DNA from: Thermoplasmata archaeon
Lineage (GTDB): Archaea; Thermoplasmatota; Thermoplasmata; GCA-020350865
Reading direction: 5' to 3'
Assembly (NCBI GenBank): GCA_020348445.1
Contig: CP070751.1
Span: 2,021,930-2,085,929 of the forward strand
DNA: 64,000 nt
Below the pieces are notes generated by a model, which saw only the letters and a program-made list of their open reading frames with translations, was not told where the DNA came from and made no database searches. Within the stretch, counting starts at the first letter, position 1, and every line of letters begins with the position of its first letter. This document shows, piece by piece, positions 3,348 to 32,988 of the stretch. The position numbers were made by a program, and so were the translations under genes.

Positions 3348-6300
3348 TTACACACTATATCTTCCCAGAGCATAGTACCTTGTTTCCCTGCCCACGACCT
3401 CCTTCTTTACAAAACCAACCTCCTCCAACTTCGATAGATGATAACCTGCAACCTGGCGGCTGACACCTGTGGAGGAGGCTATTTTTTTCTGACCTATACC
3501 CGAGTTGTTCCTTATAATTCCAAATATTTTCTGTTCTATGGCACTTAAATGGTGCAGGCCGCCCTTTAACTTTGGAACGTGTGCAGGATAAAAGCGTTTT
3601 TTTGCCCCGTCAACTCTTGAGTAAATAAACTGTGCTTCCTCCAATTGCTTAAGGTGATAAACAAGCTGGCCACTACCCAGTTCCAGCACTTCTTTCATAA
3701 GAAAGAAATAAGCACCGGGATTTCCAAGTACGTAACCGTATATTTTATACCTTGTAGGTTGATCAAGCAGTTCCTCTTTCTTAAGTCTCGTATACAGGGG
3801 TAAAAACAACGTGAGCAATGCCACCTTTCCCACCTCTGTGAGAAGGCCCCCCACTCCAAGGGCAAGAACAGAACAAGCAATTATAAACAACAGAATTGGG
3901 AAAGGCTCAGAAACTGGCTCCTTTAAAATTAATGTATCGACCTCATCACCGGAAAGCCCTGAGTTTAGATCGATTCTCTTGTCTATTTTACCATCGTTGT
4001 CCTCATCGATATACAAAGTAACAGGTTTACCTGAACTTAGAACTTCCCAGTTTTTTATTCTATAGATGTGAGTTGCATCCTCTTTTAATTTCATATCTGT
4101 CAAAATAAAATTATCCTGTTGATCATCTATGGACGTTGAAATCTCCAGAGAATAGAGTTTATCGTTCTCATTGGTGGATATTGATATTTCCTCTTCATTA
4201 AAATCGAAGACATATATATCTACAGTATTTTCAGAACATGTCACATCCAGTACACCATATTTTCTAACAATATCATCACTTACTCGAATCACGCTTAAAT
4301 CATAAAAACCGCTTCCAGTTCCTCTCACTTCAAATGTATAGCGCTCATCCAATGGAATAAAGTACACCTCGATATCGCTGTACATCATTGAAATAAATGC
4401 CCCTTCGATATCTTGTATTGGGTGGCCTTCGAAAAATCCAATTTGCCTGCCTACAGGGTTCGTTATCAACAGATCGGCAGGGCACTGTAAAATAACAACG
4501 CATTCACCACTTTCATTCAAAAATCCCTTGGCACCTTTCTGACTGGGTATCGCGTTAGACTGGTCATTATTATCCATGTTTTCAACTAAAACCGCTATTG
4601 TACTAGGATCACTCCCCCCTTCATCATCTGTTACAGTCAAGGTTACAGTGTATTCTCCATTTTCATCATAGCTATGCGCCAGTGTTTCTCCTGATCCTGT
4701 GGTCCCGTCACCAAAATTCCATTGATAGGAAACCAAGTATCCCTCAAAATCTGAGGAGAAGGATGCATCAAAAAAGACAACTCCCACCAATGGGATGATA
4801 TCGTTGAATTGGATAATAGCTTCCTGATTTTCTCCATCCTGCGAGTTGAAGAGCAAATGCACAGAATATATTTTCCCTAAGAATTCAAATGTTACGATTA
4901 TTGGATTTGATCCGCCATTATGTCCATTATACGTTAGAACGACCCTGTAAATCTTCTGAACATTCATTTCATAGGAAATCTCTCCAATATCTGGTTGACT
5001 TGAATGCCTTGTTACTTCAACGTCTTCTACGATAACTCCATCTTCCTCCAATCCCATTGTAATTATGTTTTTCTTTCTCCCTGTGACCCTTAAAGTGATA
5101 TCAATTGAGAATGTGAAGTTACCTCCAGAAAAGCCTGTTCCATTATGGTATTTAGCCTCTGATGTGGGAAGCGTATTGACGTTTATCACAAACAGATTAC
5201 CAGTCTGGTTAGTTAAGGTACCAAAAGTTGCCGTTACCCTGCAGTAACCTCCTTTCCATCCTGCTGTGAAATTTGTGTACTCATTGGGTCCAGAAGTAAC
5301 TTTTCCAACTATTGTATTGTTGCTTTCCCATGTAGCCTTTACATCTTTTACGTAATCTGCAGTATTGTTGTGCCCTGCCGCCCAAAAGACATCTTTATTT
5401 CCCTCATTGTATGTGATATCTCCCACCCACGCTCTGCCTCCACTTGGTGAATCCACGACTGTTATGTAGTCTATTCTCGGAGCTAAGACCGTAAGATCAC
5501 CTGTAATATCACCTATCCCAAAGTAATCGGCAGAAACTCTACATGTACTATCTGAAACAACTTTTTGGGCCGTGAAATTGGTCCAAAGTCCAGGTGATGT
5601 GACTTTCCCGACATTTTGGTCATCACTCTCCCATACAACCTCCACCTCCCCAAGATAATCTGCAGTATCGTTGTATGCAGCTGCATAAAAATGATCCACT
5701 TCCCAGACAACATAGGTTTTTGTAGTTACGATATTGCCAAGTCCACCTGTCCCATCTCTAATAAGGATATAATCCACTGTGGGTTCTATTACCGTAACTT
5801 TGGTTGTACCCTGTTTTCCTGAGGCTGTTAGTGTTATTGTTACAGTTCCCCAATTTTGATCATCGCAATCTATGTCGGTTGATGAACCAGGTGATGTAAC
5901 CTTTACAATTAATTCATTTGAGCTTGCCCAAGTTGCATTGTCTGGAACATCATCAAAATAATCGGTAGTATAGTTGTACATTGCGCCATAGTATTTATCT
6001 GTTCCTCCCACTGGGTAGCTTTTGTAATTGGCAGGATCACATAGATTGAATCCTCCTCCCCCAGGTTGGGTCCTAATGAGTATGTAATCTGCCCTTGGAG
6101 GATTGATATAAATATCAAATGAATCACTCACCCCTTCACTTGAATTTATGCCTGTTATTGTGGTTGAGCCTCCTTCGTGACCTGCTGTGAAAGTTGTAGA
6201 AATCCCTGATGAATTGTCCAAATTACCCAATCCCGCAGGCTCGTCCCAATTCACCGGAATTAGCCCAATGTAGCCGCACGTGTTGTTGTAAGCAGAAGCA

Positions 6301-8255: not shown

Positions 8256-8287
8256 GTTTATCCCTAGTTCCTCCTATGCCAAAAAGG

Positions 8288-8348
8288 ATATAAATGTAGT
8301 TTGGTAACTTTTTTGCATAAAATAAAATATTTTTGGTCTTTTTTTGGT
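8288..8348 (-). promoter_or_regulatory. TATA box plus family promoter motif, two copies 32 bp apart
   Basis: The + strand reads ATATAAATGTAGTTTGGTAACTTTTTTGCA...TTTGGTCTTTTTTTGG. The TATA box ends 33 nt before the ATG at 8255. Confidence 0.7.
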
Positions 8349-8375
8349 AGGAAGGGCCGTAGGCTGGGCATATGT

Positions 8376-11300
8376 TTACACACTGTATCTTGCAAGGGCA
8401 TAGTACCTTGTTTCCCTGCCCACAACTTCCCTGCTTATCAAACCCTTCTTCTCAATCTTTGTTAGATGATAACCAGCAACTTGGCGACTGATGCCCATCA
8501 TAGATGCTATCCTCTTCTGTACTATACCTGAGTTTTCCTCTATTATCCTGAGTATCTTCTCCTGAATATCGCTTAGCGTGGGAATTCCACCCTTTGGTTT
8601 TGGAATATCAGCTGGGTAAAAGCGTTTTTTAATACCGTCCTCTCTTGAATATATCATATGGGCCTCCTCTAAGTGTTTGATGTGATATACGAGTTGACCG
8701 CTGCCTAAACCCAGATCATCTCTTATCAATCCAAAATGAGCTCCCGGGTTTCCTATGATATATCCATAGATCCTTTCTCTCGTGGGTTGATCGAGGAGGT
8801 TCTCCTTCTTTATCCTGGAATAGAGTGGAATGAACAAGGATATCAATCCATATTTCATAACTTCAAGGGAGATTGCGGCCAAGCCGAAGGCACCAATGAA
8901 TCCTATCAGAAAGATAAGTGCCCATGGGAACTCAGGACCTGTAGGTTTTACCACAGGCTCTTTCGCTAGTAAGGCTACTACTAGGTCTGTATCCGACTCA
9001 ATTGTTATTTCCTGTGTACTGGAGAGAGTATCTTTTACAATCAAAACACGATATGGATTATGATCAAAAACTGATGTGCCGGTCTGCGAGGTCTGAATTA
9101 CAGGTATCCCTTCAGTCCATCCATCTTTCCCTGTGATATCTGTATGAATAAGATCATCATTTACATCGTATACGAAAATTGCTGCACCTGCAACTGGGTT
9201 TCCTTCTTCATCCACAACCCTGACCCGCAACAACCACTGAACCTCCAGACTGGATGTCGAATCCAAATGTGAATCCTCAACTGTGGTGTTTACCTTGGTT
9301 ATACTAGAATCCTTAAGCCAGAGTTCCTTAATCGTGGAATCGATGAAGATCATCTCAGAATCCACCATGGTGTTGTTGATGATTCTCAGTGAATCCCCTG
9401 ATTTGGCATAGATACCATATTGCAATGAATTGCTTATGACATTGTTTGAAATAGTGGGAGAGGAATATTCACCATATATTCCATATTCTGAATCAGAAAT
9501 CGTGTTATCTGCGATATTGGGAGAGGCATTTTTCAGATATATACCATAATCGTTTTTAGATGCGGTGTTGTTTGTGATAGATATCGAGGATGAGTTTTCC
9601 ACCATTATAGCTATTTGATTTTCCTCTAGGATATTACCATCAAATTCCAAGATTGGAAATCCTGGAACTGGATCGTACCAATACGCTATCTTGTTCTTGT
9701 AGAAATAGTTCCAGTTAAAGCAATTGCTCAGCGTGGAATTGTAATCCTTTGCACCAAATTCGGTGTTGTATGAAATCGTGTTGTATCTGATGGCATCGTT
9801 ATGGGCATGGAAAGTAACGATACCGTACTTTCCGTCAGTTATTATGTTATTTGCGATATAAGCGTTGGTTGTTCTATAGCAGTATATCCCATAATCGTAG
9901 TCTTGGATTATATTGTGGGTACTATTATCGTGGGTAATCTGTGTTGAATCCGTTTCTTGCAGATAAATCCCATATTCTCCATCCTGAATTGTGAATCCCG
10001 ATATACTGACATTATCACCAGTTACAAAAATTACCTTTCCATAACCATCTCCATCGATTATGGTTTCATCAGGGTCCTCACCCAAGAGGGTTATTGACTT
10101 GGTTATGGTGAGATGTTCATGATAAATTCCCTTATAAACGTATATAGTATCTCCGTCTTCAGCGTTCATAATGGCCTCCTGTATGGAGGTGAAAAGGGCA
10201 CCCCCGCTGTCATCCACAGTTATGTTGTTGGGCAAGGTGACTGTTAAGATACCTGTGGTGTCCGAAATCACTCCTCCACCATATTTTGCTGTTACGACAC
10301 AGGTTCCCAATCCTACGGCCGTGAAAGTCGTTTGCGAACCTGGTGTTGTCACTGTACCAACATCTGTATCGTCACTTTCCCATGCAACTGAGACATCGCG
10401 AAGATACTGTGCGGTGGTATTGTAGGCCGCCGCATAAAATTTGTCTGTATCACCTATGTCATATTCCACATTTTCCACAGCATTTCCCAAACCATTGGCA
10501 GCATCTCTGATAACTATATAATCGATGGTTGGTGGAAGTACAATAATCTGGGTCGAGGCGATGTTGGACATCGTATCCTCTAAAGTTATCTTTACAATTC
10601 CATATTCTGTATTGCTGCATGTTACTGTTGAATAATAACCAGGACTGGTTACCACAACGACATCTGTATTGTTACTAACCCAAGTGGATATGCTTGCAAC
10701 ATCTCCGATGTAATCTGCAGTGTAATTGTAAATTGCCCCGTAAAATGTTGTCTGATGACCCACGGGGTACCTTGGGTAATTTACAGGTTTTGTGAGGTCC
10801 TTTCCCCCACCATCTGGTGCATCCCTGATCAATATGTAATCCACTGTCCAGTTAAGCACCGTAACTGTGGTAATATATGAATGGATTCCATCAGTCAAAG
10901 TTACTGTTACAGTCCCTCCATTGGTTTCATTGCATACAATTATCGAGTAATTACCGGGACTTGTAACGTCCACTATCGAATAATTTGAACTAATCCAAAT
11001 CGAGGTCAGTGAAACACTGCCCTTGTAATCCACAGTGCTGTTGTAACTTGCCCCATAGAAGATGTCGTTGTCCCCTTTATGGTAGCTGATTGTGGAAATC
11101 TCGCCTCCTGCTCCGCCATCGGCTGAACGGATCTGGATATAGTCTGTCCTTGGTGCAAGAACTGTAAGAAAACCTGTTGTGTTGATGTAAATGTCATACG
11201 TGGCCCTCACAAAGCACATCCCATCAGAGCTCACCCATTTTGCAGTAAATACTGTAGATGAACCTGGTGAAGTTACAGTTCCCAATGTAATATTGCTGCA

Positions 11301-14300
11301 TTCCCAAACAGCAATTACATCCTTTACATAGCCAGTTGTATAGTTGAAGGCAACTACATAATAAACGTCTGTTTCCCATACGCAGTAAGTCTTATCTCCA
11401 ATTACATTACCTGAATCGCCTGGGGCGTCTCGAATCGAGATATAATCTATTGTCCAGTTCAATACAGTAACTAATGTTGTATTTGAGCATCCCATTGCCC
11501 ATAAGGTGATAGTAGAGGTTCCAGAGTTCGTGTCGTTACAGGTAACAGTAGTAGAATCGCCAGGACTTGTCACTGTTACTACATATGGATTGGAGGAGCT
11601 CCAATTCGTTCTTGTGGGTACATCCCCTAAATATCCTACAATATTACTGTAAAGGGCACCATAATAGATATCTACACTTCCTTTCTTATATTCGGGATCT
11701 ATTACCACATTACCCAATCCACCTGGGGCATCACGGATCTGGATGTAATCCACTGTATAGCTTGAAACAGTTAGTATGCCAGTATTATCTGATATTGTGG
11801 CATTATAAATGGCAGTGACAATGCAAGTTCCATCGCCTACTGGGTCAAAATAGGTGGAAGAACCTGGGGTTGTTACTGTTCCTACATTTGTGTCGTTGCT
11901 TGCCCATGTTACGTTGGTATCACCAAGACATCCATGTGTATAGTTGTACGCTGCCGCATAGAAACTGACATTGCCATACCATGTATAGAAGAACATGTTC
12001 TCTACCTCCTCGCCACCTCCATTGCGTGCGTCACGGATGATTATGTAATCAACTGGTGCCACTCTTAGTGTACCTGTGGTGTTGATGATACCACCTCCGT
12101 AATCTGCTTCCACTATGCAGGTTCCTATTCCAACTGCATAAAATGTTGTAGAGAGACCTGGTGTTGTCACTGTTCCTACACTTTCATCATCACTGGACCA
12201 ATTTACCATGACATCTCCAATATATCCATGGGTATTGTTGTAACCAGCGGCATAAAAGACATCGCTGTCTCCCATCTTATAGACAATATCTTCCACAAGC
12301 GAGCCTGATCCATTGGGAGCGTCCATAATCCAGATGTGGTCCACATCATATGTCATTACTGTTATCGTTCCTGTTGTATTAGATATCCCTCCACCGTAAT
12401 TGGCTCCAATAACACAGGTACCAACTCCTACTGCCTGGAAGGATGTGGATGATCCATAGGATGTTACTGTGCCCACACTCCAATTTGTGCTATTCCATGA
12501 CACAGCGTAGTCCCCCAGATAGCCAAAGGAGTTGTTATAACAAGCTGCCCAGAAGGTATCGCCTTGACCTATGTAGTACGTTTTATTACCGACAATTAAC
12601 CCGCCATCATTTGGCCCGTCTCTTATTCGGATGAAATCCACGGTATAATTCATAATCACAACGTATTGTACAGAGTATGTGAGACCCAAATAACTTGCAT
12701 TGAACCAAACAGTGTATGGAGAGCCGCCCACATCGATCCCATTCGTTGTTGCAGGCGTTGGTCCAAGAAGAGTGGCCGAACTCCCCCCAGCAGTCCAATC
12801 CGCACTCACTGTCCCGAGATAGCCAACAGTGGAATTGTAGGCCGAGCAGTAACCCCATTCCTGGTATCCCGTGGGTACAGTACCACCTGAAAGTGGTGTC
12901 CCATCGGGAGTGTCAGTGATTATTATGTAATCAACTGTCCCATTACCTTCTACTTGGTATTGTACGCTGTCGAAATGGCCATAATAACTGGCATTGAACC
13001 AAACAAAACAACTAGTTGTGGTTCCAACATCGATTCCGCTTCCATAACCCTCAGAAGGACCAATTAGGGTGGAAGTCCCGCCCTCAGCACTCCAGTTCGC
13101 TTTCACTGTAAAGATGAAACCTGCTGAATTGTTGTACGCCGAGCAGTATCCCCATTCCTGATATCCTGGTTGCACGGTCCTGTCAATAAGTGGTATTCCA
13201 CCGGGGATATCAGTGATATTTATGGAATCGATTGTATAGATGCTGACATTGTACTGAACACTGTCAAAATATCCAAGATAACTTGCATTAAACCAAACTA
13301 AACCTGGGGTGTTGTTCACATTTATAATGTTCATTACCCCGGGCGTGGGGCTCATAAGATATGCGGATCCACCCTCAGCAGTCCAATTCGCACTTACTGT
13401 TTCGATGTAACCAAAAGTATCATTGTATGCCGAGCTATAGCCCCATTCAATGTGACCTTGGGGTACTAATCTGTCGACAAGGGGTGTTCCATCTGGATCA
13501 TCTGTAATATCTATATAGTCAATTGTTGGTGAAACCACGGTGTACATAACACCGGCTATGTGCCCCATATAGCTTGCATTGAACCAAACATAACATGCTA
13601 TGGTGCCCACATCGATACCATTTGTGATGGCTGGGGTGGGACCAAGAAGTGATGAGTCTCCGCCAATCGCGAGCCAATCCGCGTTTACAGTACCAATATA
13701 ACCCAAGGTGTCATTATATGCCGAGCAATAACCCCACTCCTGGTATCCTACAGGCACGGTACCACCTGCAAGTGGTGTGCCATCAGGAACATCCGTGATA
13801 TTTATGTAATTTACTGTATAATTGATAACATTATATTCAACACTGTAGAATCTGCCGCCAAAACTTGCGTTGAGCCAGACTGTAACTAGGAAGTTGCCAA
13901 CATCGATTCCATTTGTTGTTTCAGGTGTGGGTCCAAGAAGTGTGGCTGAACCCCCTTCTGCTGTCCAACCTGCACTCACGGTTCCTAGATAGCCAATCGT
14001 AGTATTGTATGCCGAGCAGTGACCCCATTCCTGGTATCCTGTGGGTACATTCCCACCAGTAAGTGGAACACCATCAGGAATATCAGTGATCATAATATAA
14101 TCAATTGTATAATTCCCACTTATAAAGTACTCAACACTGGCGTTATGGCCAAAATAGCTTGCATTGAACCAAACAAAAAGACCCAACATGTTTCCAACAT
14201 CGATTCCGCTTCCATGACCCTCCGAAGGCCCAATGAGAGTGGATGATCCGCCATGCGCACTCCAGTTCCCGTTCACTGTATAGAGGAAGCCTGCCGTATT

Positions 14301-15692: not shown

Positions 15693-15754
15693 GTATAAAT
15701 GAAGTTTGGAATGATTTTTGCCAAATATATATGATTTGTGGAATGATTTTTGCC
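15693..15754 (-). promoter_or_regulatory. TATA box plus a perfect 16-bp direct repeat TGGAATGATTTTTGCC (15707-15722 and 15739-15754)
   Basis: Exact repeat at 32-bp spacing directly upstream of the TATA box, which ends 34 nt before ATG 15659. Confidence 0.78.
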
Positions 15755-18631: not shown

Positions 18632-20556
18632 TTACTTTTAGCATGGATATAGTACCCTCTTCCAACCTCGAAATAATCAGACGGGCCCATCTTCTCCCAT
18701 CTCTGCACCCGAGAATTATAGGTCCAGATCGCATCCACATCTTCCGTGAAATTGAGGTTGTTTAGGGCTGTAGTCCTGTTCTTAATAGAGAGGGAGGGAT
18801 AGCCAACCATGTTCCAGCCTTGATAAAGGGTGATACTCTGGTTTTCCGTTGGTTGTGTTCCGAGGTATCTGAACAACACACCCCCGGGCTCGGTAATATA
18901 AATCCAGAATCCCATGGTGTGATTAAGGTTATCTAAATCGTTCAAATGAGGAGATTTTGAGGTGCAGTTGTGCTTCCATTGGTCTTTTTTGTCTGATGAA
19001 TTATACCATTGGATAGCAGAGTATGATCCTGATATGGTTGATAGAACGCTGCTGAGGTCTGTGTTCTGCTGAATCAAAGGTAAGGAAATCAAGTTCCAAC
19101 CCTCGTACATTAAGGAACAATTGCCATAAGGATACATCAACGGATACCTATCCTCGACTTCTGTTTCACCCCAGAAGTATATATATGAACTATCACCGAT
19201 ACCGTCGCTACCCGAGATGTTTTGTCCGGGGCCGTGATTTTCATCGACACCGCTGTAATCTGACCAGTAGTTTCCCCCCGAGGGGTAACCGTTATCCCAT
19301 TGAACGCCATTATATGTATAGTCAAAGGCTGGATAATAATTGTTTATGATGTTGTTGTGGTAAATCTTGTTATCGGGGAAATCATAAATATAAAAACCCC
19401 AATAGTTTGATACAACTGTATTGAGAGTTATATTGTTTGATGAAAAATAAATGAGCATACCCCAGTGGTTATTTGATATTTTATTACTTGTGATGAAATT
19501 GTTATGAGAATATGCTACCAATATACCAACGCTTGTATTGTTTATCTGAAGGTTTTTTACATTAAAATCAGAGCAATTGACAAGAATGAGCTGTCCAACT
19601 TCTATTCCATCGATATTGATACCACTGACGTCTTTATAATAATACAACGGTTTACCATTCACTAAGTTGTTATCAGGAATCGTGTGAGTATTAAAATGAG
19701 ATAGTTGACCACCATTTATATGAATCCCACTGTTGATAAAATTGTTATTAGAGATATTATTGTTAGATGAGCTAGTAAGGGAGATGCCATATAAGTTGTT
19801 CGATATGTTATTGCCGATTATGTTGAAGTTCGATGACTTGTAAAGCTGAAAGTTGCATCCTTTGGGACATGAAACATTGTTATTTATAAAATTGTTGTAG
19901 TGAGTTTCCCGAAACCAGATTTGATTCACTTCATTGATATAGTTGCTTATGATAGTGTTTCCACTGCCACCTACAAAAAAAAATGCAAAATTACTATAAA
20001 AAAAATTGTTGTCACTTATGTTGTTGTTGGACGCCCCCTCAAAATAGATGTCATGTCCACCGTTCGAAGAAAATAGGTTGTTGGATATATTATTAAAGGT
20101 TGCTCCATTAAATCGGATACCATTATTGTTATTCCATATTACATTGTCACTTATGATGTTGTTTGAACCTGAAAGAAAGATACCGTTATAATTACCGATT
20201 ATCTCGTTGTTACTAATTGAACAGTTCTGGGTATTCCATACAGCTATACCTCCATCTATAAAATTACTTCCACTCTTAGAGATAGTGAATCCTGTGATAT
20301 TCACCCAATTAGCGGTTATACATACCGTATTATCATAATAATTACCATCGATTATAGTAATCTCCCTGTTTTCGCCCGTTAAATTTATTGTCTTATTAAC
20401 GACAACATTCTCATAATAAGTCCCGTTGAACACGAAAACTGTATCCCCATCCTTACTTGCATTTATCGCATCCTGTATTGTGGGATAATCAGTGGGAACA
20501 TAAATTGTTGTGCCACTGGAGGTCTGTATCAGATTTTGATCAGGAACAATCAACAT
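18607..20556 (-). CDS. Secreted beta-helix (NosD-like) protein with a C-terminal GWNL double module; true start probably ATA 20655
   Basis: Same cap and coils as its neighbour. The frame stays open upstream to a TAA at 20668-20670, and that extension encodes a signal peptide homologous to the 20739..23633 gene. Confidence 0.85.
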   Translation of the reverse strand: MLIVPDQNLIQTSSGTTIYVPTDYPTIQDAINASKDGDTVFVFNGTYYENVVVNKTINLTGENREITIIDGNYYDNTVCITANWVNITGFTISKSGSNFIDGGIAVWNTQNCSISNNEIIGNYNGIFLSGSNNIISDNVIWNNNNGIRFNGATFNNISNNLFSSNGGHDIYFEGASNNNISDNNFFYSNFAFFFVGGSGNTIISNYINEVNQIWFRETHYNNFINNNVSCPKGCNFQLYKSSNFNIIGNNISNNLYGISLTSSSNNNISNNNFINSGIHINGGQLSHFNTHTIPDNNLVNGKPLYYYKDVSGINIDGIEVGQLILVNCSDFNVKNLQINNTSVGILVAYSHNNFITSNKISNNHWGMLIYFSSNNITLNTVVSNYWGFYIYDFPDNKIYHNNIINNYYPAFDYTYNGVQWDNGYPSGGNYWSDYSGVDENHGPGQNISGSDGIGDSSYIYFWGETEVEDRYPLMYPYGNCSLMYEGWNLISLPLIQQNTDLSSVLSTISGSYSAIQWYNSSDKKDQWKHNCTSKSPHLNDLDNLNHTMGFWIYITEPGGVLFRYLGTQPTENQSITLYQGWNMVGYPSLSIKNRTTALNNLNFTEDVDAIWTYNSRVQRWEKMGPSDYFEVGRGYYIHAKSKCDWEVPL

Positions 20557-20738
20557 TGTAATCGATATGATAAAAAGCAGGATGACTATGACAGATGAGC
20601 GTTTTAGCGCTTTAACCCTTTTCTCTTTTCGCCAGGTATTATTATCCGTGTGTATACGCCCCCTCCATTATCCTGTCCAGTATAATTTCACATTGTTTTT
20701 ATGGATTATAAGATTTTCCGCTAGAAGAAACGTGGGTT

Positions 20739-23808: not shown

Positions 23809-26800
23809 CTATGCACCAGTATCCCTGGAAGCATAATATTTTCTTTCCCTGCCCACAACCTCCTTCTTTACAAAACCCACCTCCTCCAACTTCGATAGAT
23901 GATAGCCCGCAACCTGGCGGCTGACACCTGTTGAGGAGGCTATTTTTTTCTGGCTGATACCAGGCTTTTTCTGTATTACTCCAAATATCTTTTCCTGGAC
24001 AACACTCAGATAGTAATCCTTGGCCTTGGTTTTTGGAAAGTCAACTGGGTAAAAACGCTTCTTTATACCATCCTCTTTTGAGTATATTAACGTGGCCTCC
24101 ATCAATCTCTTCAGATGGTATATCAGCTGTCCGTTCCCAAGATCCAGATCCTGCTTTATCAACCCAAAGTGGGCACCGGGACTAGCGATTATGTAACCGT
24201 GAATCTTATGCCTTACGGGGTGGTTTAGCATCTCTTCCTTTTTGATCTTGGAATAAAGAGGGAGGAATAAGGCTAAAAGCACCCATTTGCCTATCTCTGT
24301 CAGTAAAGTTCCCGCCCCAATGGCAAAGATGAAGCCCACCATGATGACCAGCGCCCATGGAAAAACTGACTCCCCAACTGGACTTTTAACAATAAGGGCG
24401 TCGACTTCATCACCAGTAAGTCCAGATTGCAAATCCACGGTCTTATCTATGCTGCCATCGCCATCCTCGTCGATCATGAGTGTTACTGGCTTTCCTGAGC
24501 TGAGGTTCTCCCAGGTATTTATCCTGTAGATATGAGTTGCATTTTTATCCAGTCCCATATTGGTTAAGTAAAAACGATCTTCAATTTCATTAACATAGGT
24601 ACTAAATTCCAATGAATACAGCTTGCCATCCTCTTCAGTTGTCAATGATATCTCTTGTTCATTGGGATCCAATATGTATCTGTCCTGGGTATTTGTAGAG
24701 CAAGCAACCTCAAAGATCCCGTATTTTTTGGCAATATTATCATCCACACCAATTATGCTGAGATCGTATACACCAGATCCAAATCCTTGGACATCAAAAT
24801 AATAGAGCTCATCTGAGGGGATAAAATAAACCTCTACATCCGAAAACAGCATGGCGATAAATGCTCCTTCCATATTATTGATGGTGGATGCGTCGAGGAG
24901 GCCGATTTTATAATTTTCTTGATTTGTTATCAAAAGATCGGCTGGGCATTGCAAAATAACAGCAAATTGCCTGCCATCGTTTAGGAAACTTAATGCTGCA
25001 TTTTGACTTTGTATCGCCTTTGCCTGATCATTTTCGTCTATACTGTGGACATTGACTGTAAACGTTGTTTCATTTGTTCCTCCCTCATCATCAGTAACTC
25101 TCAGTGTTACAGTATAGATTCTATTTTCTTTATAATTATGAGCCAGTGTTCTGCCAAAACCCGTAGTTCCATCACCAAAGTCCCATTGATAGTCTACCAA
25201 ATATCCTTCAAAGTCGAATGAAGATGAGGCATCGAAAAATGCAATACCAACCTTCTGTAGGATGTCGTTTAAATTGATTGAGGTCTGTTGCACAGAGCCA
25301 TCTTGGGAATTGAATAATAAATATACTGAGTAAAATTTCCCAAGAAATTCAAATGTAACAACAAACGGATTTGAGCCCCCATTTGCTCCATCATAGTAAA
25401 AACTCAATTCATATACAGAATTCATATACAACTCGGAGGAGATCGTGCCCATATCCGGTTCATTAGAATCTCTTATAACCATGACACTGCCAACTGTATT
25501 TCCATCCTCATTTAATTCCATTGTTATTGTATTTCCCTTTGTACCTGCAACCCTTAAAGTTAGGTTCAAAGAAAACGATGATTCTCCTGGTAATAAACCT
25601 GTTCCATTGTGATATTGCGCCCGGGCCGTTGGAAGCTGATTGACGTTGATTACAGATAGATCACCTGTTTCATTGGTAAGGATTCCATATGTTGCAGTAA
25701 TACGGCAGCTGCCACCTACCCATCCTGCCGAAAAATCTGTATTTTCATTTGGACCCAAAGCCACTGTACCCACGGCTTCATTGTCGCTTTCCCACATTGC
25801 TTTTACATCCTTTATGTAGTCTGCTGTATAATTATAACCTGCTGCCCAAAATGTGTCAGTTTCACCCTCAGAATAGCTCTTTTCTGAAACCCACACACCT
25901 TCACCATATGATGTATCCAAAATCACTATATAATCTATCTTAGGGGCAAGAATTCTAAGATCTCCTGTGGTGTTGATTATTCCAAAATAATTGGCGGTTA
26001 CATGGCAGTAAGCATCACTTTTGATCTTCTGGGCAGTGAAGTTTGCCCAAGACACCAGTTCTTGGATTGCCCCAATGGTCGTGTCATTACTTGACCATTC
26101 TGCCTCAACATCCCCCAAGTAGCCTGCAGTGTCGTTGTAGGATGCTGCATAAAACTGATCCTTCTGCCATACAAAATAAAATTCATTTGAAACAATGTTG
26201 CCTAATCCATTTGATTGATCTCTAATTTGAATATAATCGACAGTTGGTGAGCTTACCAAGTATTTTATAGAATCAGTATTTCCCTGGTAGCTAATGTTGA
26301 ACCATACAAATCCAGATATTGTGCCAAAATAGATATCGTTTTTTACTGCTGGTGTGGGTCCAAGAAGAATCGAGTCTCCCCCTTCAGCTGTCCAGTCTGA
26401 ACTAACAGTGCCTATAAAACCCTCAGAAATATTATATGCTGAACAGTAACCTGACACCAAATCACCAACAGAAACGGTCTCGCCAACCAAGGGAGAACCG
26501 TCTGGAAAGTCAGTTATTTTTATGAAGTCCACAGTATGCGTAGTAATTAAAAAGTGGACACTATCTCTAAACGGACCATAACTCACATTTAAATAAATAT
26601 GACCCGGAACGTCTCCCACATCGATACCATTGGACTTCGAGGGTGAAGGAGCCAAAAGCGATGACGTTCCCCCTTCGGCAGTCCAGTTTACAACCTCAAC
26701 TCCAATAAAGCCGTGTGTAATATTGTAAACAGAGCAATTGTACCACTCAGAAAATCCCGCAGGTACAATTCCTCCGTCAACACGTATCCCGTCAGGAACA

Positions 26801-27645
26801 TCGGTAATTTCTATAAAGTCCACAGTGGGAGGTGACATAATGGTTATAAAAGGTCCTGCGCCTTCACCCAAATGCATGTTTTCATAATTATCGATAGCGC
26901 CTCCGTCATCGAAACGGTATCCCTTTAAACATATTTTGATGGAATAATAATATTCAACTCTACCCAGTACTTGCGTGTCATTGAAATAGGTATCTGTTAA
27001 TGGATTTGCCATATCCCCACCAACTAAAGACCAATCGGCATCTCCATTAGAGCTTCCGTTTGTGGTGCTCCTATATACAGTGTAGCCTGCAACAAGGCCA
27101 TTGGGATCGCTAATTGGGCTCCAGGTTATGTTTATGAAATTAAAACCAAAATCTGCAACTCTTGGAATGGGGATTCTCTGCAGCTCGATGGGGGGTGTGT
27201 TCTGAAGTCCGTCGGAATTCAATATTGTACTCGTGAAGGCAATATATCCTGTCCTATCGTCAGTTTCATAACTTCCGCTTTCTCTCTCAACAATAATTAT
27301 ACAAGGATCGCCAACCTTCCAATCATTTAGATCATTTTCCAAGAATGGGTCATAATAATCTATATCGCCTGTGGTTTTGATATCATCGACACCATTGCCT
27401 TCGTTCGTTCTGTTCTGAACATAATAAAAAACCAGCCCGTTCTTGGCCAAATTAAAATCAAAGGCTCTTACCCTGGTTATGGTGTTTGGAATTACTTCAC
27501 CCTTAACCTGCTTTGTACTGGTATCAGCCTTTACAGTTGCCATGGAGACAGTAAAACACATAATCAATATCATGCCAATGAGCATTTGTGCCAGTACTTT
27601 GTTTTTCTTAATGACTATCCCTCGGCTTTTCTTTGTCAAAACCAA
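23809..27645 (-). CDS. Membrane-anchored surface protein (about 1,270 aa): FN3-like domain, 4 Ig-like repeats, PKD with an insertion, juxtamembrane domain, TM helix, tandem winged-HTH; start possibly ATT 27612
   Basis: C-terminal half collinear with 3348..8255 (YQWDFGDGTTGFG, VILQCPADLLITN, IDEDGDGSID); TM FPWALVIMVGFIFAIGAGTLL; HTH helices GNGQLIYHL and VSRQVAGYHL. Confidence 0.9.
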   Translation of the reverse strand: MVLTKKSRGIVIKKNKVLAQMLIGMILIMCFTVSMATVKADTSTKQVKGEVIPNTITRVRAFDFNLAKNGLVFYYVQNRTNEGNGVDDIKTTGDIDYYDPFLENDLNDWKVGDPCIIIVERESGSYETDDRTGYIAFTSTILNSDGLQNTPPIELQRIPIPRVADFGFNFINITWSPISDPNGLVAGYTVYRSTTNGSSNGDADWSLVGGDMANPLTDTYFNDTQVLGRVEYYYSIKICLKGYRFDDGGAIDNYENMHLGEGAGPFITIMSPPTVDFIEITDVPDGIRVDGGIVPAGFSEWYNCSVYNITHGFIGVEVVNWTAEGGTSSLLAPSPSKSNGIDVGDVPGHIYLNVSYGPFRDSVHFLITTHTVDFIKITDFPDGSPLVGETVSVGDLVSGYCSAYNISEGFIGTVSSDWTAEGGDSILLGPTPAVKNDIYFGTISGFVWFNISYQGNTDSIKYLVSSPTVDYIQIRDQSNGLGNIVSNEFYFVWQKDQFYAASYNDTAGYLGDVEAEWSSNDTTIGAIQELVSWANFTAQKIKSDAYCHVTANYFGIINTTGDLRILAPKIDYIVILDTSYGEGVWVSEKSYSEGETDTFWAAGYNYTADYIKDVKAMWESDNEAVGTVALGPNENTDFSAGWVGGSCRITATYGILTNETGDLSVINVNQLPTARAQYHNGTGLLPGESSFSLNLTLRVAGTKGNTITMELNEDGNTVGSVMVIRDSNEPDMGTISSELYMNSVYELSFYYDGANGGSNPFVVTFEFLGKFYSVYLLFNSQDGSVQQTSINLNDILQKVGIAFFDASSSFDFEGYLVDYQWDFGDGTTGFGRTLAHNYKENRIYTVTLRVTDDEGGTNETTFTVNVHSIDENDQAKAIQSQNAALSFLNDGRQFAVILQCPADLLITNQENYKIGLLDASTINNMEGAFIAMLFSDVEVYFIPSDELYYFDVQGFGSGVYDLSIIGVDDNIAKKYGIFEVACSTNTQDRYILDPNEQEISLTTEEDGKLYSLEFSTYVNEIEDRFYLTNMGLDKNATHIYRINTWENLSSGKPVTLMIDEDGDGSIDKTVDLQSGLTGDEVDALIVKSPVGESVFPWALVIMVGFIFAIGAGTLLTEIGKWVLLALFLPLYSKIKKEEMLNHPVRHKIHGYIIASPGAHFGLIKQDLDLGNGQLIYHLKRLMEATLIYSKEDGIKKRFYPVDFPKTKAKDYYLSVVQEKIFGVIQKKPGISQKKIASSTGVSRQVAGYHLSKLEEVGFVKKEVVGRERKYYASRDTGA

Positions 27646-27892: not shown

Positions 27893-27923
27893 TTATAAAA
27901 GGAGTTTGGTACGATTTTTTGCC
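27893..27923 (-). promoter_or_regulatory. Single copy of the family TATA plus motif, about 250 bp upstream of the 23809..27645 gene
   Basis: The + strand reads TTATAAAAGGAGTTTGGTACGATTTTTTGCC, matching the other four sites. Confidence 0.55.
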
Positions 27924-28028: not shown

Positions 28029-28047
28029 CGATAAGCACAAACATATA

Positions 28048-31000
28048 TTAAACGCTCATAGCTTTAGAAGGGTAATACCTGCTTTCCCTCCCTACCATCT
28101 CTTTCTCGATCATACCTTCCCTTTCAAGTTTTGCCAGGTGATATCCTGCCACCTGACGGCTGATACCAATTTTTGAGGCCACCTTCTTTTGACTGATACC
28201 TGAATTCCTCTTTATGATCCCCACTATTTTCTCCTGAATATCACTAAGAGGAGTTTTACCAATTTCTGCCTTTGGGTACCCTGTTGGGTAAAAGCGTTTC
28301 TTTAAACCGTCCTGCTTGGAATAAATAAGGTGTGCTCTGGCTAGCTGTCTGATGTGATCTGCAAGTTGGCCATTACCAAGCTCTAGATCATGTTTTATCA
28401 ATCCGAAATGTGCACCTGGATTACCGATTATATATCCAAGGATCTTGTATCGTGTAGGCTGGTCCAGTACCTTATCTTTCTTAATCCTGGAATACAGCGG
28501 GAGGAACAACATCAATAATCCATATTTTACAACTTCAATGGATAATCCGGCCAAACTGAAGGCTCCTATAAATCCAACCAAAAGAACCAAAGCCCAAGGA
28601 AACGCCTGTTCTGAGGATTTGATAATCACCTCTTTACTCTCAAGAGATATCACCGTCTCGGTATTTTCTTCAATTGAAATCACAGATTCAGCAGAGAGTG
28701 AATCCTTTGTTACCAAAATACGATATGGATTATAGGATACTGTGGATGTTGAATCCTGAAATTGCACAGTTAATGGTGTCTGTTCTATCCATCCATCCGA
28801 GTCTGTTATGTGCGAGGACACAACTGTATTAAAGACATCATATATTAAAACTGCAGCATCTTTGACTGGATTTCCCTCTTCATCAACAACTCTTACTCTC
28901 AGGAACCACTGATCCTCCAATCCTGAGATGTCGTCCAATTGATAACTCTCGATTACAGAATTGACCTTTGTAGCAGTTGTATCCTTTAGCCACAATTCTT
29001 TGATAGTGGAATCAACAAATAACATCTTGGAGTCAGTCAATATGTTGTCTTTAACTACCAATGAATCTGCAAATTCAGCATATATTCCATAATTGGTAAT
29101 TTCGCTGATTTTGTTGTTTGAAAGTGTGGGTGAAGAATATTCACAGTAAATTCCATAGTCTGCATCAGATATCGTGTTATGTGCAATATAGGGAGAGGCT
29201 CTGATTAAATAGATACCATATTTGTTTCTGGATGCTATATTGTTGGTTATGGATATGGTTGAGGCATTTTCCACCATAATTGCTATGTAGTTGTCCTCCA
29301 AAGTGTTACCATCAAATTCCAATGTATCAAGAGGAATGTCCGGGTCGTAATAATACGCTATATGATTATGATGGAAACGGTTCCAATTGAAGCAGTTTCT
29401 CAGCTGGGAATCGTAATCCTTTGCCCCATACACGGTGTTATACGATATCTCGTTATATCTGATAGCGTCATTGTAGGCCTCAAATGTAACGATGCCATTT
29501 TGTCCGCCAGTGATCTTGTTATAGGTAATCCAACCGCCAGTTGTACGATAATTATAGAGGCCATAATCATAATCCCTGATTATATTATAAGTAATTTTTG
29601 TGGAATCTGATTCATCGCAATATATTCCATATTCGCCGTTCTGAATGGTGAAGCCACTTATTCTTACATTATCGCCAGTTAAATAAATCACCTTTCCGTA
29701 ACCTTGTCCATCAATTATGACTGTGTCCCTGTCCTCACCCATGAGGATAATTGATTTGCTTATGGTAAGATGCTCGAAATAAGTTCCGCTGTAGACATAC
29801 ACTGTATTACCATCTTTTGCATTATCAATTGCCTCTTGGATGGATGTGAAATGCGCTCCACCACTGTCGTCCACTGTGATATTGTCAGGTAAGGTCACTG
29901 TCAAGGTACCTGTCGTATCAGTTATTCCTCCACCATAATCTGCAGTCACAACGCAGGTTCCCATACCAACGGCAGTGAATTTCGTAGAAGAGCCCGAAGA
30001 AGGATCCACGGTCCCTACACTCTCGTCATCGCTTGACCAAGATACGCTAACATCTTCAAAATATCCTGCAGTATTGTTAAATGCTGCAGCATAGAACATG
30101 TCGGGATCTCCGATGATATAGAGCATTTCTCCAACCTCATCACCCAAACCATCAGGAGCATTCATGATCTTCATATAATCAATAGTTGGTTTTTGTACTG
30201 TTACCTGAGTTGTGGCACTATGGCCCATCCATTCATAGAGAGAGATCCTCACAGTACCATAATTGGTGTTGCTACATGTAATGGATGAGGATACACCGTA
30301 AGTTGTGACCTCTACGATGTCGGTATTGCTGCTGGTCCAAATCGATGTACTGGCTACATCGATGAGATAGCCTTCACTGTAGTTGTACATTGCTCCATAA
30401 AATGTGGTTGAATGTCCTACAGGGTAGCTGGGATAGTTAGCCGGATCGCTTAAGTCTATCCCTCCTCCATTGGGTGCATCCCTAATCAGTATATAATCCA
30501 CGTTCCAGAATAATACAGTTACTGCCGTGGAGTAAATGTGGCTTGCACCGTCATTCAACTTCACTGTTACGGTACCCCAATTTGTATCATTGCATGTGAC
30601 GGCAGAGAAATTCCCGGGGCTTGTAACCTCGACAATTGATGTGTCTGTGCTTGTCCAACTGGACGTTTGTGGAACAGTGCCGATGAAATTAACTGTGTTG
30701 TTGTATGAAGCCCCATAATATACATCTATAGCCCCTCTTTGATAGCTGATACTGCTAATCGGGGCTCCTCCCCCATTATCAGCAGAACGGATCTGAACAT
30801 AATCGACTCTCGGGGCAAGAACAGTAAGTGTGCCTGTTGTATTGCTGAAGCTTTTATAAGTCGCCATAACCTTGCATGTACTATCAGTTGTCACCCATTG
30901 TGCAGTGAAGGTAGTAAAAACACCTGGTGAAGTTACTTTGCCCACATCTGTATCATCGCTGTCCCACGACGCGATTACATCTGTTACATAACCGTATGTG

Positions 31001-32988
31001 TAGTTGAATGCAATTGCATAGAAAGTATCAGTGTCCCATACACTATAGGTTTTATCGCCTATATGATTACCGGAACCACCAGGAGCGTCCATAATAGATA
31101 TGTAATCAATTGTATAGCTGAAAACAGTTAAAGTTGTACTGTTCCAAACCCCGAAGGCCCATATTCCTATGACAGATGTACCTGTGTTAGTATCGCTGCA
31201 TGTGATGATAGCTTGGCTTCCTTGAACTGTAATGGTAGCTACACTCAAATTTGAACTGTTCCAAAATGCATCTTGGCCTGGGTACGCAGACAATATATCA
31301 CATAGATAACCGTTTGTTCTGTTATATAAAGCTCCATAATATATGTCCACACTTCCCAATACGTAATAAGGATCTGTAACGACATTTCCTCCTCCATTTG
31401 GAGCATCGCGAATTTGAACATAATCAACGGTGGCAGAAGAGACTGTAATTATACCTGTATCATCAGTTATCCCACCATAATTAGCAGTGACAATGCATGT
31501 TCCATCTGCTATAGGATCAAAATATGTTGAATAACCTGGTGATGATACGTTGCCAACACTGTCATTGCTGCTCATCCAAGTTACATACACACCTCCTAGA
31601 TAGCCATGCGTGTCGTTGTATGCCACTGCAAAAAAGACCTCTCCGTAATTCCAGGTGAAGTAGAACCTGTCTCCAACCTCGTTATCATAACTGTCTACAA
31701 TCGTGATAGAATCCACTTTAGCTACAGTGATGACGCCAGTGTCATCTGTTATGCTTCCTCCATAATCTGCGGAAACGATACAAGTGCCCGGTCCTCGTGC
31801 TCTAAATGTGGTAGAAGAATCATTGCCATTCACTTCTCCAACACTGGGATTACTGCTAGTCCAGTTCACTGAGACATCGCCTACATATCCCACCGTATTA
31901 TTATAGCCTGCGGCAAAGTATTCATCTGTATCTCCAATCTTATACAACATATCCTCGACAGGGGAGCCCATGTTTCCATAAGAGTCGCGGATGATAATAT
32001 AGTCTACATCATATGTTTTTACAGTGATAATGCCTGTGTTATTAAATAATCCGCCATTTATATATACATTCACAATACAAGTTCCTGGCCCTATTGCCCT
32101 GAAAAATGCAGATTCGTTTTCTTGGCTATCTACAAATGCGACCATTGTATTGTTGCTCCACCATTCCCCTATCATATCCCGTAGGAAACCAAATGTATCA
32201 TTATAGGCTGCTGCCCAAAACAAATCTGTCTGTCCAACATAATATGTTCTATCAAAAACAACCTCCCCACCACCATCAGGACCATCACGGATAATTAGTT
32301 CATCTATTGTATATACCGTAAGTATACCTGTATCGTTGGTAATCCCTCCGCCATAATTTGCCGTGACAACACAAGTTCCCCCTCCTAAAGCATAAAATGA
32401 TGTCTGAGAGTGATTTGTGGTCACTGTTCCAACATTCTCATCGCTGCTTGTCCAATTCACTTTTACATCACCGACGTAGCCGAATGATATATTATATCCT
32501 GCAGCGTAGAATGTGTCGACATCCCATTGAACATAAGTGCGTGGTCCTACCCAATTACCACCGTTTCTTGGCTGGTCTCTGATAATTATGTAATCAACTG
32601 ATGGGGGAGAGATTTCTATATCAAATGAATCTGACAGTCCCAAAGAACTGTTATAAACAGTCTGCTTAAACAAACCAGGAGTTCCACCAGCTGTGAATGT
32701 GGAATTTGTACCCAAATTTGGAGACCAAATACCTCCTCCCCCGGTCCAATTCACCTCTACCAAGTCCACATAACCGGTTGTGGTATTATAACCAGAAGCA
32801 TAGGCTGTAACCTGTCCCCCTATATCTACGACAACTGTTGTTAGTTCTGTCCCATCAGGTGCATCAGTAAGAACAATGTAATCTATCCCTTGAGCCCTTG
32901 AATCTTCCTGATAAAAAAGAAAGATGCTCAACATGATCAAACCGAACAACACTAGACTTAATAGCTTTCCTTTCCTCATATTCATCAC
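28048..32988 (-). CDS. Membrane-anchored surface protein (1,646 aa; likely start ATG 32979): 10 Ig-like repeats, beta-helix, beta-sandwich, TM helix, tandem winged-HTH; closest paralog is 8376..15680
   Basis: Signal peptide MRKGKLLSLVLFGLIML; ITVDDSGGAHFTSIQEAI; TM FPWALVLLVGFIGAFSLAGLSI; HTH helices GNGQLADHI and ISRQVAGYHL. Confidence 0.9.
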   Translation of the reverse strand: MMNMRKGKLLSLVLFGLIMLSIFLFYQEDSRAQGIDYIVLTDAPDGTELTTVVVDIGGQVTAYASGYNTTTGYVDLVEVNWTGGGGIWSPNLGTNSTFTAGGTPGLFKQTVYNSSLGLSDSFDIEISPPSVDYIIIRDQPRNGGNWVGPRTYVQWDVDTFYAAGYNISFGYVGDVKVNWTSSDENVGTVTTNHSQTSFYALGGGTCVVTANYGGGITNDTGILTVYTIDELIIRDGPDGGGEVVFDRTYYVGQTDLFWAAAYNDTFGFLRDMIGEWWSNNTMVAFVDSQENESAFFRAIGPGTCIVNVYINGGLFNNTGIITVKTYDVDYIIIRDSYGNMGSPVEDMLYKIGDTDEYFAAGYNNTVGYVGDVSVNWTSSNPSVGEVNGNDSSTTFRARGPGTCIVSADYGGSITDDTGVITVAKVDSITIVDSYDNEVGDRFYFTWNYGEVFFAVAYNDTHGYLGGVYVTWMSSNDSVGNVSSPGYSTYFDPIADGTCIVTANYGGITDDTGIITVSSATVDYVQIRDAPNGGGNVVTDPYYVLGSVDIYYGALYNRTNGYLCDILSAYPGQDAFWNSSNLSVATITVQGSQAIITCSDTNTGTSVIGIWAFGVWNSTTLTVFSYTIDYISIMDAPGGSGNHIGDKTYSVWDTDTFYAIAFNYTYGYVTDVIASWDSDDTDVGKVTSPGVFTTFTAQWVTTDSTCKVMATYKSFSNTTGTLTVLAPRVDYVQIRSADNGGGAPISSISYQRGAIDVYYGASYNNTVNFIGTVPQTSSWTSTDTSIVEVTSPGNFSAVTCNDTNWGTVTVKLNDGASHIYSTAVTVLFWNVDYILIRDAPNGGGIDLSDPANYPSYPVGHSTTFYGAMYNYSEGYLIDVASTSIWTSSNTDIVEVTTYGVSSSITCSNTNYGTVRISLYEWMGHSATTQVTVQKPTIDYMKIMNAPDGLGDEVGEMLYIIGDPDMFYAAAFNNTAGYFEDVSVSWSSDDESVGTVDPSSGSSTKFTAVGMGTCVVTADYGGGITDTTGTLTVTLPDNITVDDSGGAHFTSIQEAIDNAKDGNTVYVYSGTYFEHLTISKSIILMGEDRDTVIIDGQGYGKVIYLTGDNVRISGFTIQNGEYGIYCDESDSTKITYNIIRDYDYGLYNYRTTGGWITYNKITGGQNGIVTFEAYNDAIRYNEISYNTVYGAKDYDSQLRNCFNWNRFHHNHIAYYYDPDIPLDTLEFDGNTLEDNYIAIMVENASTISITNNIASRNKYGIYLIRASPYIAHNTISDADYGIYCEYSSPTLSNNKISEITNYGIYAEFADSLVVKDNILTDSKMLFVDSTIKELWLKDTTATKVNSVIESYQLDDISGLEDQWFLRVRVVDEEGNPVKDAAVLIYDVFNTVVSSHITDSDGWIEQTPLTVQFQDSTSTVSYNPYRILVTKDSLSAESVISIEENTETVISLESKEVIIKSSEQAFPWALVLLVGFIGAFSLAGLSIEVVKYGLLMLFLPLYSRIKKDKVLDQPTRYKILGYIIGNPGAHFGLIKHDLELGNGQLADHIRQLARAHLIYSKQDGLKKRFYPTGYPKAEIGKTPLSDIQEKIVGIIKRNSGISQKKVASKIGISRQVAGYHLAKLEREGMIEKEMVGRESRYYPSKAMSV

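Follow-up and report, generated by a model that had tools for sequence, protein, structure and literature searches.

Giant archaeal surface proteins with tandem winged-helix tails: candidate membrane-tethered transcription regulators in Thermoplasmata

Introduction

A stretch of 64,000 nucleotides from a Thermoplasmata archaeon (contig CP070751.1 of assembly GCA_020348445.1, positions 2,021,930 to 2,085,929 of the forward strand; hereafter the window) carries an array of genes for giant cell-surface proteins, each of which ends in a tail of two winged helix-turn-helix (wHTH) units. These proteins are probably membrane-tethered, sequence-specific transcription regulators that read a promoter element and wire the state of the cell surface to one regulon. 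This interpretation draws on the architecture, predicted topology and fold of the proteins, on purifying selection acting on the tail, on the link between a promoter motif and the tail genes, and on the joint change of motif and recognition helix in related archaea. In the model that we infer from these data, the tail would be the reader of the motif and the state of the ectodomain would modulate the tail.

An earlier sequence-based reading of the window (the original prediction) had described four complete genes of this kind, encoding a signal peptide, 4-18 immunoglobulin (Ig)-like repeats with abundant glycosylation sequons, a PKD or beta-helix domain, a single transmembrane (TM) helix and two wHTH units, in a topology reversed relative to classical membrane-bound regulators with the tail inside the cell. 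All four open reading frames (ORFs) were recovered on the minus strand (Table 1), and the features claimed for them agree with the results reported below. The array of four therefore stands, but it is joined by a fifth gene that is cut by the contig end, and it represents only one branch of a family with thousands of members.

Membrane topology and fold of the tail

Each protein begins with a Sec-type signal sequence (lysine-rich n-region, hydrophobic core and AxA-like end) and contains one strongly hydrophobic segment, located about 180 aa from the C-terminus. The ectodomain is acidic (isoelectric point (pI) 4.05), bears sequons and contains 8-25 Cys residues, and the tail is basic (pI 9.7-10). 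Across 129 homologues, the positive-inside rule is obeyed, with a mean of 4.2 Lys plus Arg residues in the 15 positions after a conserved PLY motif versus 1.1 in the 15 positions before the TM segment, and PLY follows the TM start at a constant spacing of 35.6 +/- 2.3 residues. Every indicator, namely the signal peptide, the single span, the charge bias and the combination of an acidic, sequon-bearing ectodomain with a basic tail, predicts that the tail lies in the cytoplasm.

A structural model of the TM segment and tail of gene 2, built with 42 homologues, reached a predicted local distance difference test (pLDDT) score of 89.6. It comprises a continuous 43-residue helix that includes the TM segment, a TE.GK motif, a short hydrophobic stretch and the sequence PLYSRIKKE, followed by two helix-helix-helix-wing units. 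The short hydrophobic stretch was also considered as a second span, which would place the tail outside the cell. This possibility was rejected because the stretch is only 9-12 residues long and forms part of the same helix as the TM segment, because the TE.GK break is absent from some paralogues, and because the spacing between the TM start and PLY is constant.

The first unit (wHTH1) belongs to the Pfam family PF24266 (HTH_HVO_0163_N) in all four proteins, with E-values of 5e-13 to 7e-19 and scores of 49.5-68 bits against a cut-off of 31. The second unit (wHTH2) matches the Pfam families HTH_24, HTH_20 and MarR; HTH_24 scores 26.8-43.3 bits in all four proteins (cut-off 21.9), and the MarR HTH profile exceeds its cut-off in gene 2 only (28.3 versus 24.6), with no flanking dimerisation helices in the model. 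Prediction of a homodimer of the TM segment and tail gave a score of 0.43 versus 0.40 for the control. No NCBIfam family scored above its cut-off for the tail, and the ArsR/SmtB metalloregulator profile NF033788 reached 36.9 bits, below its cut-off of 55, for a tail devoid of Cys.

At the level of structure, wHTH2 matches MarR, MexR, MecI, DNA-bound FabT and RosR with Z-scores of 10.7-11.7 (11-11.7 for the first four, with root-mean-square deviations of 1.2-1.7), and wHTH1 matches DNA-bound NolR and SmtB. The tandem tail as a whole resembles ScpB, ESCRT-II, RPC34/62 and SelB, as well as Pyrococcus furiosus PF0095 (2QUF) and Phr. With a predicted DNA-binding domain and at least one predicted TM segment in a single protein, these proteins fall under the published definition of transmembrane transcription regulators (TTRs; PMC10269533).

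Conservation and selection

Over their last 165 residues, the four proteins share 58-66% identity, and the motifs singled out by the original prediction hold in this comparison, SRQVAGYHL being invariant and G(S/N)GQL conserved. Between the four tails, synonymous divergence is saturated (pS 0.72-0.92) and nonsynonymous divergence is low (pN 0.21-0.26), as expected of old paralogues under purifying selection. When genes 1 and 3 are compared over 3351-3845 and 23812-24306, they share 93-96% identity in a patch of about 90 nt that covers the wHTH2 recognition helix and approximately 50-70% in the remaining tail, which suggests local gene conversion between the two genes. Only five ORFs of this genome encode SRQVAGYHL, and all five are membrane-tethered.

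Among 150 family representatives, the conserved core consists of the juxtamembrane TE.GK...PLY segment and wHTH1. The recognition helix of wHTH2 is variable, as would be expected if DNA specificity had diversified within the family.

A promoter motif shared by the array and by giant secreted proteins

All five genes are preceded by the element GCAAAAA-N5-6-CC(A/G)AA(C/A)-N4-TTTATA, which occurs seven times in the window versus 0.00 expected from dinucleotide shuffles. Its half-sites form a direct repeat with a spacing of about 12 bp, or one helical turn. Where units are doubled, three turns separate them, and the proximal half-site abuts the TATA box, in the position of the B recognition element (BRE). 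Genome-wide, 13-15 sites were detected, and those in intergenic regions are all located 40-280 nt ahead of an ORF of at least 728 aa. Beyond the five array genes, the motif precedes only eight genes in this genome, all of them for giant secreted proteins that are mutually non-paralogous: a C25 peptidase, an S8 subtilase, an FG-GAP protein, a PKD protein and several NosD/beta-helix/CARDB proteins. The possibility that the motif is simply the generic promoter of the organism was rejected, since 294 TTTATA promoters display only a weak A-rich BRE and no motif. Scanning five genomes with the reversed pattern as a control returned 0 sites.

A looser version of the motif was found in this genome upstream of 7 of 19 tethered paralogues, none of 7 soluble paralogues and 35 of 2453 other ORFs (Fisher p=1e-8, tethered versus other ORFs), and those 35 ORFs are themselves enriched for giant proteins (54% versus 18%). 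Related CAAAA...CCAAT/ACAAAT-TATA arrangements were recognized by eye upstream of several further paralogues, and same-genus relatives retain the motif upstream of orthologous tail genes.

In gene 3, roughly 250 nt separate the motif from the called TTG start (window 27646-27893), and they contain a strong GGAGG site with a short ORF (MNKKPGLL) behind it; the start may have been mis-called, or the stretch may be a long leader or encode a leader peptide.

A branch linked to ATP-binding cassette transporters

A set of 64 loci was collected with the patterns PLYSRIKKE and NPGAHFGL, which bias it towards Thermoplasmatota. In about 28 of them, from other Thermoplasmatota, a member of about 340 aa lies between or just upstream of genes for giant solute-binding proteins (SBPs) of the SBP_bac_5 family and Opp-type permeases of ATP-binding cassette (ABC) transporters. 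These short members consist of a signal peptide, an ectodomain of about 150 aa, a TM segment and a tail that is 35-45% identical to the tails of the window. ABC-transporter genes are the only neighbours that recur consistently: no conserved protease or other partner gene was found beside family members in the 64 loci, antisense ORFs and a zinc-ribbon protein recurring less often. Linkage to Opp-type transporters was also sought in the window's own genome, and none was found.

The intergenic regions of the ABC loci contain a related element, ACAAA(A/G)-N5-(G)TAC(A/C)A(A/T)-N4-5-T(T/A)(T/A)A(T/A)A, which is often doubled. A regular expression covering the two variants retrieved 59 sites in 610 kb of loci, all on the strand of the tail gene and preceding the tail gene itself, SBP genes or permease genes; the reversed sequence gave 0. 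Within five whole genomes of about 2 Mb, the variant motif occurs 1-4 times each, and all 15 sites stand ahead of a tail, SBP_bac_5 or permease gene (0 sites for the control), which is the signature of a locally encoded, autoregulated and dedicated regulator. The motif and the recognition helix also change together: ACAAAA...TACAAAT goes with S(Q/R)Qxx(S)YNL and TNGTLSHHL, and GCAAAAA...CCAAAC with SRQVA(G/S)YHL and G(S/N)GQLVYHL.

One conserved Thermoplasmatota cluster (L022-L054, e.g. L034:2216-12474) combines family-5 solute-binding proteins of 950-1,240 aa carrying Big_1/Big_7 Ig domains, the tethered wHTH protein of about 340 aa, and Opp-type permeases, one of which has Kelch repeats in an extracellular loop region. 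Every transcription unit of this cluster is preceded by ACAAAA-N5-TACAAAT-TATA.

Family size and taxonomic distribution

A search of 1.84 billion representative proteins with a profile derived from the four tails retrieved 355 clusters at E<1e-30; the number rises to 3,254 when the threshold is relaxed to E<1e-10 and to 7,654 at E<1e-3. Among the best 150 matches, the tail lies at the C-terminus, or no more than about 100 residues from it, in all but a few proteins, and is mostly preceded by one TM segment and an N-terminal signal-like segment. The N-terminal part of these 150 proteins varies in length between about 0 and about 2,100 aa, and it is longer than 800 aa in roughly a quarter of them. 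Assemblies of JGI, ENA, Logan and NCBI, among them a closed 3.2-Mb chromosome of a metagenome-assembled genome (MAG), yielded close homologues with PKD or beta-helix ectodomains.

The genome under study contains 35 PF24266 matches; about 19 copies are tethered, and about 7-8 paralogues with two wHTH units are soluble. Genomes of the same genus have 10-21 matches and most other families of the class 1-8, and no match was detected in the genomes searched from three families of the class. The tail family seems to be restricted to archaea, with the tethered form expanded in Thermoplasmatota; Pfam knows it only as a domain of uncharacterised archaeal proteins.

Ectodomains

The ectodomain repeats have a period of 97-101 aa and are present in about 10, 18, 4 and 10-11 copies in genes 1, 2, 3 and 4, respectively. 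A single repeat modelled from an alignment of 38 repeats adopts an Ig-like beta-sandwich (pLDDT 96.9) that matches Ig domains of the S-layer proteins SbsC, SbsB and EA1 and Big domains of LigA/B (TMq 0.58-0.70). The fold thus agrees with that of Big_2-type adhesin and S-layer Ig repeats, for which the Pfam Big_2 sequence match is sub-threshold. An AYNxT sequon is kept in almost all repeats. According to Pfam, the ectodomains contain PKD in genes 1 and 3 (E 1e-17 to 1e-20) and NosD/beta-helix domains in genes 2 and 4 (E 1e-20 to 1e-23).

A further family member from a Thermoplasmata MAG (P0224, 662 aa) carries a glycoside-hydrolase-like ectodomain, with Pfam GH32 and GH130 matches, ahead of the same tail, indicating that family ectodomains include enzyme or carbohydrate-binding folds.

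Proposed mechanism

Under the proposed mechanism, the four proteins, and probably the fifth, would be type-I single-pass proteins exposing a long glycosylated, adhesin-like ectodomain, with an Ig-like stalk and a PKD or beta-helix head. Their basic tail of about 150 aa, made up of two ArsR/MarR-type winged-helix units, would face the cytoplasm and stay tethered to the membrane, at least until some release event. The most likely predicted target is the direct repeat (G/C)CAAA(A/C)-N6-7-(C/T)(C/A)CAAA directly upstream of the TATA box. As the element stands in the promoters of the tail genes themselves, autoregulation is implied, and the regulon would also take in about eight other giant secreted-protein genes. 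Considering that five ectodomains of differing composition share one recognition helix, different surface states would feed one regulon. The original prediction had likewise proposed that many inputs may converge on one regulon; this idea is substantially strengthened by the shared promoter motif and by the family-wide link between motif and tail genes, with the ectodomains as putative sensors.

The spacing of the half-sites (about 12 bp, often doubled at 32-33 bp) suggests that several tails bind side by side, presumably on one face of the DNA and at or next to the TFB/TBP entry site. The conserved wHTH1 might occupy the conserved proximal half-site and the variable wHTH2 the distal one, or the wHTH2 units of neighbouring molecules might bind in tandem; the effect on the promoter could be either activation or repression. 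Since a rigid helix would fix the tail to the membrane, an outside input would most plausibly act through clustering or cleavage rather than through a conformational relay. Possible routes of modulation include clustering or oligomerisation on a ligand or upon surface contact, and proteolytic release of a fragment of about 18 kDa.

Several observations weigh against the tail being the reader of the motif. The best whole-tail structural matches (ScpB, ESCRT-II, RPC34/62 and SelB) include protein- and RNA-binding modules, so that the fold by itself is no proof of DNA binding, and the putative recognition helix of wHTH1 is unusually conserved and has few polar residues. The covariation of helix and motif rests on essentially two classes, given that loci within a subfamily are related by descent. 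Moreover, 8 of the 13 motif-bearing genes encode no tail, so the tail genes may be mere members of a regulon under other control, and the position of the proximal half-site at the BRE means that the reader could be the basal factor TFB or another regulator.

Alternative explanations

The tail might be a genuine DNA-binding autoregulator without external sensing, in which case the ectodomains would simply serve as adhesins, enzymes or coat proteins and the tethered tail would do no more than report the amount of protein made or inserted, providing dosage or assembly feedback on a surface-protein regulon. Such feedback would account for the motif in the tail genes' own promoters, and it would fit both the character of the ectodomain modules (Ig-like stalk, PKD and beta-helix), which are structural or adhesive rather than known ligand sensors, and the single rigid TM helix, which offers no obvious route for a conformational signal. 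However, the ABC-linked members sit where a substrate-responsive regulator would be expected, and the combination of five different ectodomains with one recognition helix under strong selection is easier to understand if the ectodomains give different inputs. On balance, feedback without sensing appears unlikely.

A bolder form of surface-to-regulon signaling would be a Notch-like contact switch, in which the stalk of up to 18 Ig-like domains would bind a surface, a polymer, a partner cell or a virus, and pulling or clustering would lead to cleavage near TE.GK/PLY. The transcription factor of about 18 kDa thus freed would switch a regulon of extracellular proteases and adhesins on or off. This scenario is speculative and its realization doubtful; if true, it would be the first archaeal case of receptor proteolysis delivering a transcription factor, and the ABC-linked members would be new extracellular substrate sensors working with giant binding proteins.

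It is rather improbable that the tail does not read the motif at all and instead serves as a protein- or RNA-binding adaptor that fastens the giant surface proteins to some partner in the cytoplasm, or non-specifically with respect to sequence to the nucleoid, with the motif being read by a specialised TFB or another regulator. Three observations would be compatible with an adaptor: the whole-tail resemblances listed above; the fact that conservation is strongest in wHTH1 and in the juxtamembrane segment, which a fixed partner would explain; and the location of the proximal half-site at the BRE position. On the other hand, the variant motif occurs only 1-4 times per genome and always in the tail-gene/ABC cluster or at further SBP genes in the five genomes, the motif variant follows the recognition helix, each unit matches DNA-bound MarR/ArsR regulators at Z of about 11 within a strongly basic tail, and soluble two-wHTH paralogues exist.

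Finally, although the MAG is fragmented with 100-N joins, the region is repeat-rich and one gene is cut at a contig end, the idea that the fusions are assembly chimeras (a possibility that the original prediction had itself raised) or decaying pseudogenes can be practically dismissed, as the same architecture recurs in hundreds of clusters from independent assemblies, the closed MAG chromosome among them, and the reading frames are intact and under purifying selection.

Relation to known systems

TTRs have been censused computationally, archaea included, at about four per archaeal genome (Demey et al. 2023, PMC10269533), and the main text of that census, searched by terms, contains neither "PKD" nor "Thermoplasmat". 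The TTRs treated there, together with ToxR, TcpP and CadC, resemble the present proteins in that one polypeptide crosses the membrane once and joins a portion outside the cytoplasm to a winged-helix domain for DNA binding, and in acting on promoters from the membrane, as is proposed here. However, ToxR, CadC and TcpP have an N-terminal OmpR-type wHTH, a type-II topology and small periplasmic sensors, whereas the proteins described here have a type-I topology with an N-terminal signal peptide, C-terminal tandem ArsR/MarR-type units, ectodomains of up to about 2,250 aa and about 19 copies in one genome; no Trans_reg_C/OmpR-type Pfam family was among the matches listed at E<=0.01. The membrane-bound one-component regulators ArnR and ArnR1 of Sulfolobus acidocaldarius, which control the archaellum and pili (PMC6396743), are likewise archaeal membrane-bound regulators of surface structures, but they have an N-terminal HTH, C-terminal membrane helices and no large ectodomain, and they belong to an unrelated family in another phylum.

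Tandem or extended winged-helix architectures are also found in P. furiosus PF0095 (PDB 2QUF), the heat-shock regulator Phr (PDB 2P4W) and PDB 5DUK. None of these has a membrane anchor, and apart from 5DUK, an uncharacterised single-domain protein that matches wHTH1 by sequence (E 2e-7), they show no sequence relation at E<0.01. Notch, SREBP and the anti-sigma factors RseA/RsiW share the layout of a large ectodomain, one span and a cytoplasmic part acting on transcription, the giant repeat ectodomain being particularly Notch-like. In contrast to these systems, the present proteins revealed neither a cleavage site nor an autoproteolytic domain, nor could a dedicated protease be found, and release is conjecture.

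TrmB-type regulators (Pfam PF01978) of Thermococcales are soluble wHTH proteins encoded beside the sugar ABC transporter operon that they control; their operator overlaps the BRE/TATA region, and sugar is sensed by a cytoplasmic C-terminal part. The members of about 340 aa occupy the same position beside an ABC transporter, and one of them has a sub-threshold-to-weak match to the TrmB HTH, but they are membrane-tethered and their variable part lies outside the cell.

A literature survey on HVO_0163, COG3398, PF24266/DUF7343 and archaeal architectures combining wHTH and TM segments, with subscription journals outside its coverage, found no description of the present architecture, namely the type-I C-terminal tandem ArsR/MarR-type module, the conserved juxtamembrane motif, the range of ectodomains between none at all and the size of adhesins, the expansion to about 19 copies in a genome, and a predicted operator and regulon. 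The general class is already covered by the census cited above.

To date, archaeal gene regulation is known mostly from soluble regulators, and the relay from surface to chromosome is poorly understood, above all in phyla with few two-component systems. The present analysis provides a candidate pair of a tail of about 150 aa and a 28-bp operator, the operator occurring in two natural variants that each go with their own recognition helix. Confirmed binding would delineate, in abundant protein-degrading sediment archaea, a regulon that comprises giant surface proteins together with extracellular proteases, supply a sequence rule that predicts targets for hundreds of related regulators, and reveal that adhesin-sized ectodomains can act as direct transcription inputs in prokaryotes.

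Gene array and neighbouring features

The host contig of about 90 kb derives from a fragmented MAG of 5.16 Mb (81.7% complete) whose contigs are linked by 100-N runs, and the start of the window coincides with a contig end. The fifth gene is 75% identical to gene 1 across 555 aa. A fragment at the start of a contig elsewhere in the genome (G000 2712632-2714902) is 86% identical to the last 716 aa of gene 1 and may be the missing end of the fifth gene.

Table 1. Coordinates of the array genes, their tails, promoter motifs and neighbouring genes in the window.
Feature	Position	Strand	Description
Gene 1	3348..8255	minus	1635 aa: signal peptide, ~10 Ig-like repeats, PKD (aa 1159-1220), TM, tandem wHTH tail
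Gene 2	8376..15680	minus	2434 aa: signal peptide, 18 Ig-like repeats, NosD/beta-helix (aa ~2014-2128), TM, tandem wHTH tail
Gene 3	23809..27645	minus	1278 aa: differing N-terminal module, 4 Ig-like repeats, PKD (aa 802-866), TM, tandem wHTH tail
Gene 4	28048..32988	minus	1646 aa: signal peptide, ~10-11 Ig-like repeats, NosD/beta-helix, TM, tandem wHTH tail
Fifth gene, same kind	1..3228	minus	Truncated by contig end; N-terminal 1076 aa in window, tail not assembled here
Gene 1 TM helix, juxtamembrane TEVGK...PLYTRLKKEE and two wHTH units (predicted cytoplasmic tail)	3351..3896	minus	
Gene 2 TM helix, juxtamembrane segment and two wHTH units	8379..8921	minus	Sequence used for modelling (pLDDT 89.6)
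Gene 3 TM helix, juxtamembrane segment and two wHTH units	23812..24354	minus	
Gene 4 TM helix, juxtamembrane segment and two wHTH units	28051..28593	minus	
Promoter motif of fifth gene (N5 spacer)	3262..3289	minus	
Promoter motif of gene 1	8289..8316	minus	
Two tandem motif units upstream of gene 2	15694..15753	minus	32 bp apart
Promoter motif of gene 3	27894..27922	minus	~250 nt ahead of called start
Two tandem motif units upstream of gene 4	33014..33075	minus	33 bp apart
Three NosD/beta-helix/CARDB surface-protein genes between genes 2 and 3	15863..23633	minus	No wHTH tail, no promoter motif
LarE-type sulfur transferase, AMMECR1-family protein, dihydroorotase	33137-35984		Housekeeping flank
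LIMLP_15305-like protein and protein with multiple zinc ribbons	40018-41701		Housekeeping

Housekeeping genes flank and interrupt the island. Among the surface-protein genes between genes 2 and 3, the ORF at 18607-20556 was called without a signal peptide, but the in-frame upstream sequence (window 20557-20736) encodes one, KRVKALKRSSVIVILLFIISIT, as is likewise present in its paralogue at 20739-23633. No ATG, GTG or TTG follows the preceding stop, so that either a rare start codon is in use or the start has been lost.

A C-terminal domain of about 110 aa (...GWN.VGYPS...NRT..LNN...D.I.TY....Q.W...G..DYFE.GRGYYIH....W.VPL), without a Pfam match, recurs in many TM-less giant secreted proteins, including those at 15863-18631, 18607-20556 and 47818-51438 of the window and at the G000 loci L078, L079, L081, L082 and L085. 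The promoter motif is present at several genes with this domain, which may serve for docking or anchoring, perhaps onto the tethered proteins. A second recurring C-terminal domain (...YDTMG(I/L)PLK...ADW.C..I....GINY......W.WH...MP.GA.D....M..G.QIST....KF.FIG), also without a Pfam match, closes other giant secreted proteins, namely those at 20739-23633, 41717-47560 and 63637-63999 of the window and one at L080.

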